The position numbers are program-made. A stretch of 64,000 bases of DNA. Origin: Bdellovibrionota bacterium. Lineage in GTDB: Bacteria; Bdellovibrionota_C; UBA2361; JBGSMV01. This document shows, in pieces, positions 30,001 to 33,000 of this stretch (position 1 is its first letter; each line of letters starts with the position of its first letter). The stretch is taken from contig JBGSMV010000047.1 of the NCBI GenBank assembly GCA_041739995.1, positions 3,972 to 67,971 on the forward strand. Direction: 5' to 3'.

Positions 30001-33000
30001 CCCGGAACGCCTGCAGAGCTCATAGTGTTGTCACAAACATCCCGCGAACGCGTAAGTCTGTTGCTGGAAAGAACGCTACCAGGTCAAGCTCAGGGCACTA
30101 AGGTTCGCTGCGCTCGAACAGGACGCTTTAGAACAAATACAGAAGACTCGGCCGCATTCCTGCGCACAAGAGTCAGCCCCCTGGCTCGATACCTCCCGGG
30201 GCTCTCTATCTCACTACTGAATGCCTCAAACCAAGCAGTCGCCAGTGTCGATTTACCAGTCGAGGGAAACATCGCCGACTTAGTAAGCTCTCGCCGAGCT
30301 CGAATCCTTGGCCAGCGCGCTTGTCAGAGTATTGCCGGCAACCTCCGCCTTCTTGGGGCCGCCCGCTCAAGATATAAGAAGGTCGCATAACTTAGGCGTC
30401 TTATATCCACCAAGCAGACGCGAGGCCTAAGCCACAAACCATGTGTAACATGAAGTAAGACAGGAAAATGGCCGCCCAAAACAGCAGCTCTGCGCCATTT
30501 TTCAAGAAGCCAAAAATATGTTCGTGAGTGCCCGCTCAGCTTCAAACTCGCTTAGGTTAGGTCACGCACTATACCTCCCAATCTTTCCCAATACAGGCTA
30601 GTTTATTGGGGTGTTGAGCCCGATTACCTTTTCTCTCTTTTCTGACCCCACTGCACGCATCGTTATCTTGGGATGTGGCGTTCTTGGCGCCTGCGCCGGA
30701 GCGCTTGGCTGTTTTGCCATTCTGCGCAGACGAGCACTGGTCAGCGATGCTGTCGCCCACGCCGCTTTGCCCGGTGTGTGCGTTTCGTACCTCATCTTTG
30801 GCGAGAGAAACCTACCCGCGCTAATTTTGGGAGCCTTCGTCTTCGGACTGCTGGCCGCGGGATCTATTGCACTCGTACAGCGTTACTCACGCATCAAAGA
30901 CGACGCTGCTACCGCACTAGCAATCGGTGGATTTTTTGGCTTGGGCATCGTGCTTTCACGGATCATTCAGAACAGCCCCACAGGAAATCGCGCAGGCCTT
31001 GATGGGTTTATTTTCGGTAAAGCGGCCAGCTTAGTCTGGAGTGATGTCGTTTCGATTTCCATTCTTGCCATTTGCATTCTGGGCACTTTAGCTTTGTTCT
31101 TCAAAGAATTCTCTGCGGTGTGTTTTGATCGAGGCTTTTGCGCCAGCCTTGGTTGGTCGGTGTTACTTTATGAACTTCTACTAGTAGTGCTCGTCACGGC
31201 CTGTGCCGTAGTAGCATTACCTGCAACCGGCGCAGTCTTGATTGTCGCTTTGTTAATCATCCCCGGCATCACCGCCCGATTTTGGACCGACTCACTGCTA
31301 CGCATGGTGCTGCTGGGCGGATTGATCGGATTCTCCAGTGCAGTGCTCGGTACGATTGTGAGTGCAACGGTGCCACCTCCTGGATCTGATGGACGCGGTG
31401 GCTGGCCGACAGGTCCGATGATTACTCTGGTCGCTTCCGCGCTCTTTTTCCTTTCGTTGTTTTTCTCCCCTCGCCGCGGGGTAGTAGCTGATTGGATAAG
31501 AACCAGACGCATGCGCAAGCTGCTAGCCAAACAACTCCCTGAGGTTCTATGAGCAGCTTCGCCCAAAACCTCTCGACACTTAGCACGCTACTCACGGAAG
31601 ATGATTGGTGGAATATGACCACTGGCGTGGTGTGCGCGGTATCTTGTGCTATTCCGGGGTGTTTTCTTTTACTTCGCAGACTCTCTTTACTTGGAGATGC
31701 GCTTTCGCACTCGATTCTTCCCGGCATTGCACTCGCCTTCATCATTACTGGTTCTCGCAACATTAGCTTCATGCTCTTTGGAGCCCTGCTTGCGGCGATG
31801 ATAACTGTATTCATTTCAAGAAACATTCAAGTCTGGGGACGCATTCCTGAAGACTCGGCTCTAGGAGTGGCGTTTACTTCACTCTTCGCGCTCGGGGTAG
31901 TTTTGCTAAGCGGTGCTGCCAGACATGTCGACATAGATCCAGGCTGCGTGCTTTACGGATCGCTTGAGTTTGTCTCCTTTGATCGCATAGACCTCATGGG
32001 TTTCGAAATTCCACGTGTGCTCGTGAGCTTACTGGTGATACTCACGATTTCTATCGTTGCAATCACCACATTCTTCAAGGAGCTGACGCTCGTCTCCTTT
32101 GATCCAACACTCGCCAAGACGTTGGGCTTTCTTCCTTCAATCATCAGCACCGTCTTCTTGCTGCTTGTCTCGAGCGTGATTGTCGCTTCATTCGAAGCAG
32201 TTGGTTCCATTCTGGTAGTCACCATGCTGGTAGCACCTGCGGCAACTGCGCACTTGCTGACTGACAGACTCGTACCACTCCTGCTCTTCGCCGCATTTCA
32301 AGCGGTAATTTCCGCAATTCTTGGGTATCTAGGCGCGGTGATGTTGAACACATCGGTCGCCGGCATGATAAGCGTGGTTTCCTGCGTTCTGTTTCTTGGT
32401 GCCTTATGTCTATCCCCTCGCTATGGGTTTGTCTCGCGCTTAGTTCGACGATGCTTGCTGCTGGTTCGCATTGCAAAGGAAGATATTCTTGGAATCATTT
32501 TCAAAATTGAAGAGCGCCTAGGAAAGTCTCAACCCGTTTCCTCCAAAACTCTATCCGATCTGCTCCGAGATGAAGGGGCGAGCGTCCTGCGGACTTTCGC
32601 TCGCTATCAGCTCCTCTCCTCGGGTTTACTCAAAGAAGAATCTCGCGGACACTTCAGTCTATCTCCGTCTGGACGAGCCTTCGCCCAAAGCATCGTTCGT
32701 GGTCATCGGCTTTGGGAGACCTACCTTGAACAGTTTCTTAACCTTCCAAGTGACCATGTACATGCTCCTTCTCACCTAGTTGAGCATTATCTTTCTCCCC
32801 CTTTACAGAGCATGATCGCGCGTCAAGTAAAGACGTCTCAAGATCCTCATGGCTCGATTATCCCAAAAGAACCCATTCCGAAAAAGGATAACGCAGATGA
32901 CTAGCGCCTCTATTTCACCAGAGTTGGCCGAGAAGGTTCATCGCCTTAATATCGCCGGCATTCAACGCCACATTTTTCTTTGTGCAGATCAGAGCAGTCC

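Follow-up and report, generated by a model that had tools for sequence, protein, structure and literature searches.

Within a 64,000-nucleotide stretch of DNA from a Bdellovibrionota bacterium (here the window: contig JBGSMV010000047.1 of assembly GCA_041739995.1, positions 3,972 to 67,971 of the forward strand), one gene was found to encode an ATP-binding cassette (ABC) permease of the ABC-3 type joined to a C-terminal TroR/MntR-like module of the DtxR family. The fusion is real and intact, and the protein is of the same kind as YtgC-YtgR (CT069) of Chlamydia trachomatis, to which it was likened by description of the architecture; that architecture is therefore already known. The Chlamydia fusion has reportedly been known since 2011-2012, from Akers 2011 and Thompson 2012. 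Permease-repressor fusions orthologous to YtgC-YtgR have been reported from 11 phyla (PMC5599777, PMC7755916), and fusions of this type are common among environmental bacteria; the idea of a new design, as the original prediction had it, was therefore abandoned. With a probability put at roughly 0.55, the fused module is read as a YtgR-like repressor that senses the imported metal and exerts negative feedback after release from the membrane. What appears to be new is the degeneration of the helix-turn-helix (HTH) in the fused family, the occurrence of double fusions beside a separate MntR, and the exceptional retention of DNA contacts in the window protein and its closest relative.

The fused gene is a single open frame of 451 amino acids (aa); its ATG and the stop codon of the permease gene before it (30611..31552) overlap by 4 nt (ATGA). 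Its parts, with the basis of each assignment in brackets (AF2, AlphaFold2), are the following.

31549..32904, plus strand: whole fused gene, ABC-3 permease with TroR/MntR-like DtxR-family module (open reading frame, Pfam, NCBIfam, PDB, AF2, Foldseek)
31549..32427, plus strand: PsaC-like permease domain, residues 1-293, with an N-terminal amphipathic helix and nine membrane helices (AF2, Foldseek)
32428..32520, plus strand: connecting helix continuous with DtxR helix α1, residues 294-324 (AF2, IdeR alignment)
32542..32664, plus strand: winged HTH, residues 332-372 (AF2, Foldseek)
32665..32868, plus strand: metal-binding/dimerisation domain, residues 373-440 (PF02742, IdeR residue mapping)

The presence of an ABC-3 permease and a DtxR/MntR core in one polypeptide, as originally predicted, was borne out by profile, sequence and structure comparisons. 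In Pfam, PF00950 (ABC-3) matched residues 23-287 (E 1.7e-41) and PF02742 (Fe_dep_repr_C) matched residues 373-440 (54.4 bits, cut-off 27), while the NCBIfam MntR and DtxR models aligned with residues 309-441. When PDB sequences were searched with phmmer, PsaC (7kyp) matched residues 24-296 (E 1e-28), and MntR, SloR, DR2539, IdeR and DtxR matched residues 310-440 (E 2e-10 to 1e-6). An AF2 model with an input alignment of 98 homologues reached a predicted local distance difference test (pLDDT) value of 93.5 and a predicted template modelling (pTM) score of 0.86. Foldseek matched its permease part to PsaC 7kyp, with a target TM-score of 0.87 and a root mean square deviation (rmsd) of ~3 Å, and, separately, the module to two-domain DtxR-family regulators such as DR2539 (8pvt; 135 columns, rmsd 2.3 Å, TM-score 0.83). 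The peptide RGHRLWETYLEQFLNLPSDHVHAPSHLVEHYLS, which had been quoted as DtxR-like, corresponds to residues 384-416 and does align to DtxR/IdeR.

Joining of two genes by an assembly error is excluded, because the 120 best database homologues, drawn from many independent assemblies, all carry PF00950 and PF02742 in one protein. An identical protein is on record in NCBI, and a 72%-identical protein from an independent assembly is also fused. No internal start with a ribosome-binding site was found at the domain junction, where the in-frame TTG of L303 was the only candidate. The C-terminal extension does match DtxR-family profiles, and no frameshift separating a stand-alone regulator gene was found, 120/120 homologues being fused in one protein.

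Up to about residue 288, the model consists of the N-terminal amphipathic helix, the nine membrane helices and PsaC-like extracellular-gate and coupling helices. A five-residue turn follows (residues 289-293), in which G293 is invariant and P290 nearly so. The Asp/His metal coordination site of the PsaC channel, D46/H50 (PMC8346216), corresponds to D50/H54 of the fused protein (GDALSH aligned with PsaC GDAISH), and both residues are invariant in the 98 homologues. A crude topology based on hydropathy and the positive-inside rule was not decisive and was replaced by the AF2 model together with PsaC homology. Because four more helices come after the coupling helices, which AF2 and Foldseek place between transmembrane helices TM5 and TM6, the model puts the C-terminus with its DtxR module in the cytoplasm, as had been predicted for the regulator domain. 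The finding that PsaC is functional with a C-terminal green fluorescent protein fusion (PMC8346216) agrees with this placement.

From the last membrane helix into DtxR helix α1, residues 294-324 were modelled as one unbroken helix, whose residues L304, R307, I308, E311 and D312 are at least 90% conserved in the fused homologues. Beyond it lie α2 (residues 332-342), the recognition helix α3 (345-357, GASVLRTFARYQ), two wing strands (361-363 and 369-371) and α4 to α6 (373-427), with α2, α3 and the two-strand wing modelled at pLDDT ~89-97. No SH3-like third domain was found in the module; such a domain is likewise missing from Treponema pallidum TroR and from MntR (PMC2628430).

Metal ligands were assigned by transferring DtxR numbering via the IdeR alignment, with site definitions taken from PMC2628430. 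The site 1 ligands of DtxR (H79, E83 and H98) correspond to H386, E390 and H405, and those of site 2 (M10, C102, E105 and H106) to D312, H409, E412 and H413, while DtxR E9 corresponds to E311. Across 118 fused homologues, H386, E390, H405, E412 and H413 are invariant and E311 and D312 are at least 98% conserved; the weakest-kept ligand is H409, with His in 62%. A DPHG motif at residues 432-435 is also invariant in fused homologues. The proposed alignment against DtxR/MntR therefore came out in favour of the prediction for the metal ligands, all of which are present and kept. Because these ligands are near-invariant in the 118 homologues, metal sensing by the fused module is clearly under selection. 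The Asp at the DtxR M10 position resembles Mn sensors, the His at the C102 position is neither the DtxR nor the MntR/TroR state, and the metal sensed is not readable from sequence.

The HTH gave a different picture for the family and for the window protein. For comparison, a control set of 120 stand-alone MntR proteins was seeded from the regulator beside the fused operon in L010, one of the relatives' loci. Mean pairwise identity in the fused family (stand-alone MntR in brackets) was 63% for the permease (not applicable), 59% for helix α1 (72%), 52% for the metal/dimerisation domain (63%) and 30% for the HTH (76%). The HTH is thus the least conserved region of the fused family and the most conserved in the controls. 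The Pfam HTH model PF01325 was assigned to 0/120 fused homologues in precomputed annotation, and matched 120/120 controls. The DNA contacts of DtxR are T40, Q43, T44, R47, R50 and R60 (PMC7762939). These positions are 88-100% conserved in the controls; in the fused family the expected residue type was found in 4-10% of members, except at the R50 position (70%), and hydrophobic residues occupy the R47 position in 88%.

The window protein keeps five of the six contacts and its 72%-identical relative four, the two top scores among the 118 proteins. S345, R348, T349, R352 and R366 take the places of DtxR T40, Q43, T44, R47 and R60, and the recognition helix (SVLRTFARYQ) aligns with MntR TVIRTIGRLQ, giving the common pattern [ST]V[IL]RT..R.Q. 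Because it retains both these contacts and an MntR-like recognition helix, the window protein looks, by sequence signature, competent for DNA binding, and most relatives do not. The claim of a DtxR HTH with a metal-site and dimerisation core accordingly held for the metal domain (PF02742) and, as a fold and in full-length alignment, for the HTH, which failed against PF01325; conservation of the recognition helix held for the window protein and not for the wider fused family.

The fused homologues came from metagenome-assembled genomes (MAGs) of Planctomycetota, Verrucomicrobiota and Desulfobacterota, and the fusion was found in at least four of the phylum-level lineages sampled. An exhaustive search with the module only returned 303 cluster representatives at E ≤ 1e-10. 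Among the best 150 of these, the match nearly always reaches the protein C-terminus, and ~60 are at least 385 aa long with the match placed after a permease-length N-terminal part. Most of the shorter matches among the 150 read as N-terminally truncated fragments of fusions, while a few of ~133-144 aa begin within the connecting helix and could instead be either stand-alone forms or fragments.

In loci L001-L004, L010 and L012-L014, a DtxR-like domain is present on both permeases, with two different conserved ligand sets. The module on the upstream permease has the pattern Q-H/N .. HRLWE .. DHVDRDADxIEH .. SPH, and that on the downstream permease, the window type, has ED .. HRLWE .. DHxHxPxHxxEH .. 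DPHG. In L005 and L006 the fusion is on the upstream permease only. A separate MntR lies next to the fused operon, together with a promoter-overlapping palindrome, in L010, L013 and L014; in L010 and L013 the spacer that separates the -35 and -10 elements of the operon promoter holds an ATGTA..TACAT palindrome. Coordinates on these contigs are as follows.

L010 8649-11332; L012 8665-11314; L013 5637-8305; L014 5694-8389: double fusions
L010 5367-5792; L013 2394-2849; L014 2440-2910, all minus strand: divergent stand-alone MntR (PF01325 and PF02742) beside doubly fused operons on Phycisphaerae-like contigs

Other arrangements of the same parts were also seen. Five proteins of 777-806 aa (P0007, P0008, P0011, P0022 and P0280) are triple fusions with both permeases and one DtxR-like module in one chain. 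Metagenome proteins of ~165 aa (P0248, P0256, P0270, P0288, P0293, P0302, P0314 and P0338) start at the equivalent of M273 and comprise the last membrane helix and the DtxR-like module; a genuine internal start could account for them, as could fragmentation of fused genes. In L001, from a Desulfobacteraceae MAG with a doubly fused operon, a perfect iron-box-like palindrome, ATAGGATTcAATCCTAT, at 1803-1819 precedes the gene for the binding protein by ~145 nt; a stand-alone DtxR gene is absent from this 12.5-kb contig.

In the window, a candidate target for the module was found as a 13-mer that occurs ahead of both the ATPase gene and the permease genes.

27258..27270, plus strand: 13-mer ACTCGCTTAGGTT, candidate shared cis element, 104 nt upstream of the ATPase gene and overlapping the stop codon of the preceding gene
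30546..30558, plus strand: second exact copy of ACTCGCTTAGGTT, 65 nt upstream of the permease genes

Shuffled upstream regions shared a word of this length in 5/5000 cases (empirical p ~0.001). There is no third copy in the 64 kb at 0-1 mismatch, and a repeat family was thereby ruled out. At 30552-30561, TTAGGTTAGG matches the left half of the DtxR/IdeR iron box perfectly, and ACAGGC near the GTG starts is also common to the two upstream regions. A candidate reading of the 13-mer is a cis element common to both regions, which the splitting of the operon by the subtilase gene may have duplicated. Predicted sigma-70 promoters between 27100 and 33500 numbered 4, versus 4.3 expected, and were no better than chance. 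Separately, the intergenic region ahead of the subtilase gene contains GTCTGTGACACAG at ~28181-28193 and, 150 nt away, its exact reverse complement CTGTGTCACAGAC at ~28342-28354. Both are near-palindromic in themselves, and the pair may be binding sites for another regulator.

In Chlamydia, YtgR is a 28-30 kDa product cleaved from YtgC that binds the ytg promoter in an Fe-dependent manner and represses ytg and trpBA, as judged by reporter and chromatin immunoprecipitation (ChIP) assays (PMC5599777, PMC6504234, PMC7755916). By analogy, imported metal that accumulates would bind between α1 (E311, D312) and α5 (H409, E412, H413), as well as at H386/E390/H405, and would switch the fused module on. 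The activated module would be released by proteolysis, as published for YtgR, and would then dimerise and repress the transporter genes, for which the non-palindromic 13-mer with its iron-box half-site would be the best candidate target. Such a circuit would amount to negative feedback with a constant ratio of sensor to transporter. For the fused module, the cleavage, the dimerisation, the target DNA and the metal are inferred. In favour of this reading, the MntR-like recognition helix and the wing arginine needed for repression are kept in the window protein and its closest relative, unlike in the rest of the family.

A number of results weigh against repression by a released module. Within the window protein, PF01325 gave no match even at E ≤ 10, S357 stands in place of DtxR R50, and an insertion at its end makes α3 two residues longer than that of DtxR. 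There is one DtxR-like domain per transporter here, while the family binds DNA as dimers; the membrane link is modelled as a conserved rigid helix, not a flexible linker; and a cleavage site in the fused protein was not predictable. Among the 118 fused proteins, 111 keep at most two of the six DNA contacts, and in several relatives with lost contacts a separate MntR sits beside the operon. Because of these losses and the adjacent MntR genes kept in several genomes, the DtxR-like domain appears clearly to have another selected role in relatives.

The DNA side likewise counts against it. The original prediction had proposed a search for DtxR/MntR-box palindromes in the promoters of the binding-protein, ATPase and permease genes, and these yielded the repeated half-site only. 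No match to the DtxR iron-box consensus was found in the window within 3 mismatches, and inverted repeats upstream of 21697, 25579, 27362, 28441 and 30611 were weak or GC-rich only. An AT-rich palindrome was not found upstream of the transporter genes, no right half of the iron box follows TTAGGTTAGG, and the 13-mer was not found in L008, a syntenic relative.

The alternative that survives best, a possible one held at well under even odds, is that the module is a built-in allosteric sensor: metal would clamp α1 onto the dimerisation domain and lock the transporter shut, with no role for DNA. Many of the family data point this way, namely the low HTH identity (30%, with the metal domain at 52% and the permease at 63%), which reverses the order in stand-alone MntR, the assignment of PF01325 to none of the 120 fused homologues and all 120 controls, and the replacement of DNA contacts, often by hydrophobic residues, in the 111 members noted above. 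A rigid and conserved connecting helix would also suit a gate, the double fusions would put a pair of DtxR-like domains under one transporter, and a separate MntR with a promoter-overlapping palindrome is at hand in L010, L013 and L014. A precedent in the same transporter class is the zinc-sensing domain of ZnuC (PMC12236471). The window protein, however, is one of the two exceptions that keep DNA contacts, and its partner permease (30611) lacks a DtxR-like domain, so there would be no pair within the complex. To our knowledge, there is no structure or transport assay of any fused member, which is counted against gating, and such experimental data as there are for the permease-repressor architecture show DNA binding and repression. 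The winged-HTH fold is kept throughout the family, which would also fit DNA binding with drifting specificity.

For the wider fused family, allosteric gating would nonetheless be at least as good an explanation as repression. Tentatively, and with a chance well below even, the DtxR-derived module of the family could be primarily a cytoplasmic gate (trans-inhibition) that acts in pairs in most relatives, with transcription left to a separate MntR. On that view, the DNA-reading form seen in the window would be a rare one, either transitional or both gate and repressor. Metal gating of transport, which had been raised as a non-DNA role, is accordingly favoured by the comparative data for the wider family and disfavoured for the window protein by its canonical DNA contacts.

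Improbable is an intact membrane-tethered repressor, in which the uncleaved fusion would bind DNA at the membrane in the manner of ToxR or CadC. In DR2539, N-terminal residues touch DNA phosphates, and in DtxR the first turn of α1 abuts the DNA and has to unwind against a steric clash (PMC7762939). Control by the intact protein is disfavoured because the start of α1 must unwind at DNA, yet α1 here is prolonged by ~17 helical residues into the membrane, the clash itself being predicted from secondary structure only. The originally suggested ToxR/CadC-style arrangement is also less likely given that the Chlamydia repressor is cleaved off, that DtxR-family proteins bind as dimers while each transporter has a single such domain, and that ToxR and CadC belong to another domain family with the opposite topology. 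On the other side, full-length YtgC repressed in Escherichia coli too, and membrane-anchored LacI can work (PMC5599777). The 28-30 kDa YtgR fragment is larger than the ~17 kDa module and may retain membrane helices, and a half-site in place of a palindrome would suit a monomeric tethered domain.

Very unlikely is a relic fusion, in which the stop codon between troD-like and troR-like genes was lost and no regulation is left. The gene order mirrors troC-troD-troR (PMC2628430) and the HTH is degenerate in most relatives, as a relic would allow, but the 118 homologues, whose permease identity averages 63%, do not vary in their metal ligands or fold-defining residues, and a fusion under neutral decay would not have persisted across at least four phylum-level lineages. 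Nothing was found for an assembly or sequencing artefact joining two genes, whose probability is negligible given the continuous frame, the identical NCBI protein, the 72%-identical and 118 further homologues that are fused, and the lack of a start at the junction.

Alone, the window gene is one more example of a known fusion and changes little. The family comparison is more useful, in that few members keep the DNA contacts and the majority have lost them, often together with a double fusion and a separate MntR. If this split reflects function, the Chlamydia permease-repressor fusion may be the exception, and a transcription-factor fold may have come to serve metal ABC importers as an allosteric gate. 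If true, this would matter for metal homeostasis and for the interpretation of YtgCR.

Among known systems, YtgC-YtgR shares with the fused protein an ABC-3 permease with a C-terminal DtxR/TroR-like domain in one open reading frame of ~450 aa, a Tro/Ytg-type transporter, conserved DtxR metal ligands and the lack of an SH3 domain. It differs in that Chlamydia has the first permease fused (ytgC), followed by an unfused ytgD, whereas the second permease is fused here; the operon here lies in three places, and the WWW motif is absent, with only WW at residues 20-21. The troABCDR genes of T. pallidum and T. denticola (PMC2628430) resemble the window system in the TroA homologue, the permease-permease-regulator order and a two-domain module like that of T. 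pallidum TroR. TroR, however, is soluble and not joined to a permease, its operator is an 18-bp dyad, for which no counterpart was found here, and its ligands N10 and E102 contrast with D312 and H409 of the fused protein (PMC2628430). The stand-alone regulators MntR, DtxR, IdeR, SloR and DR2539 share the fold (the 2.3 Å over 135 columns to 8pvt given above), both metal sites and the MntR-like recognition helix; unlike them, the module is covalently joined to a membrane protein via the prolonged α1, and its HTH is too divergent for PF01325.

MetN C2, ModC and the zinc-sensing domain of ZnuC (PMC12236471) are likewise built-in cytoplasmic substrate-binding domains, and such a design could give post-translational feedback. 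Those domains are on the ATPase and of unrelated fold, whereas the domain here is on the permease and derived from a transcription factor, and its gating is hypothetical. ToxR and CadC also join a DNA-binding winged helix to a membrane protein, but they are activators with an N-terminal OmpR-type domain, one membrane helix and a periplasmic sensor; the fused protein has the reverse order of parts, with a C-terminal DtxR-family module and a nine-helix anchor.

The other transporter genes of the window are listed below.

21697..22677, plus strand: TroA-like substrate-binding protein (PF01297, E 3e-76)
27362..28117, plus strand: ABC ATPase subunit of the transporter (PF00005)
30611..31552, plus strand: partner permease, 313 aa, unfused (PF00950, E 3e-58)

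The substrate-binding protein matched T. pallidum TroA (1k0f/1toa) at E 1e-84, and because it is a close homologue of TroA, the transporter is assigned by homology as a Tro/Ytg-type (ABC-3, cluster A-I) Mn/Fe/Zn ABC importer. All relatives examined have a single operon in the order binding protein, ATPase, permease, permease, the ATPase orthologue immediately preceding the permease genes. The window has these genes dispersed over three places: that for the binding protein is found 9 kb upstream, behind tatD, while that for the ATPase comes after an FAD-oxidoreductase gene and is separated from the permease genes by a gene for a secreted subtilase (28441-30390). In L008, the ATPase, permease and fused permease genes are contiguous. 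The order of permease followed by permease-regulator mirrors troC-troD-troR (PMC2628430), which suggests fusion of adjacent genes.

In L001-L006, L010 and L012, the upstream permeases, which are orthologues of the partner permease, are fused to a DtxR-like domain. The partner permease itself ends in a short helical stub after its last membrane helix; at residues ~285-313 the start of the connecting helix is kept (SPRRGVVADWIRTRRMRKLLAKQ) and the chain then ends. Such a stub would be consistent with secondary loss of the DtxR-like module. No stand-alone regulator was found in the 64-kb window at E ≤ 10 with a profile of the 120 MntR proteins, which missed the fused domain too and is insensitive to divergent DtxR-like sequences. 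Neither a riboswitch nor any other Rfam family was matched in the 64 kb. SufB of the window has its nearest matches (82-88%) in proteins labelled as from Proteobacteria and Bdellovibrionota MAGs, which makes an uncultured Bdellovibrionota-like bacterium, rather than a chlamydia, the probable source.

Downstream, the fused gene is overlapped at its 3' end by a small gene, as had been noted in the original prediction.

32897..33271, plus strand: thioredoxin-like [2Fe-2S] ferredoxin gene (NCBIfam models below cut-offs)

Its product matched the 2Fe-2S ferredoxin model NF041612 (E 4e-14, 53 bits, below the cut-off of 150). The overlap amounts to 8 nt (ATGACTAG) if the gene starts at 32897 and 56 nt for the longest open reading frame, which starts at 32849; the ATG at 32897 is the more likely start, because AAGGA lies 9 nt upstream of it. 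The L008 orthologue of the ferredoxin gene is 2.6 kb away from the permease, on its downstream side and immediately ahead of tpx, and no orthologue was found in loci L001-L007 and L009-L012. On this comparison, the conserved partner of the ferredoxin appears to be tpx, not the transporter. The overlap itself was therefore confirmed, while the redox input proposed from it was not upheld, and the ferredoxin was rejected as part of the transporter system, its linkage to the permease not being conserved in relatives.

Elsewhere in the window, long open reading frames (395-708 aa) without a Pfam match occur at 6037-8768, 42062-45463, 49810-51306 and 55847-57421. The region 34867-38020 encodes a putative ATP-dependent zinc protease (PF05618), an inactive transglutaminase fused to a seven-transmembrane (7TM) domain, and a RimK-like ATP-grasp protein. 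At 22679-24550, on the minus strand, lies a flagellin gene in which five FG-GAP repeats replace the variable middle between the Flagellin_N and Flagellin_C ends; two genes similar to this FG-GAP flagellin are present in L008.

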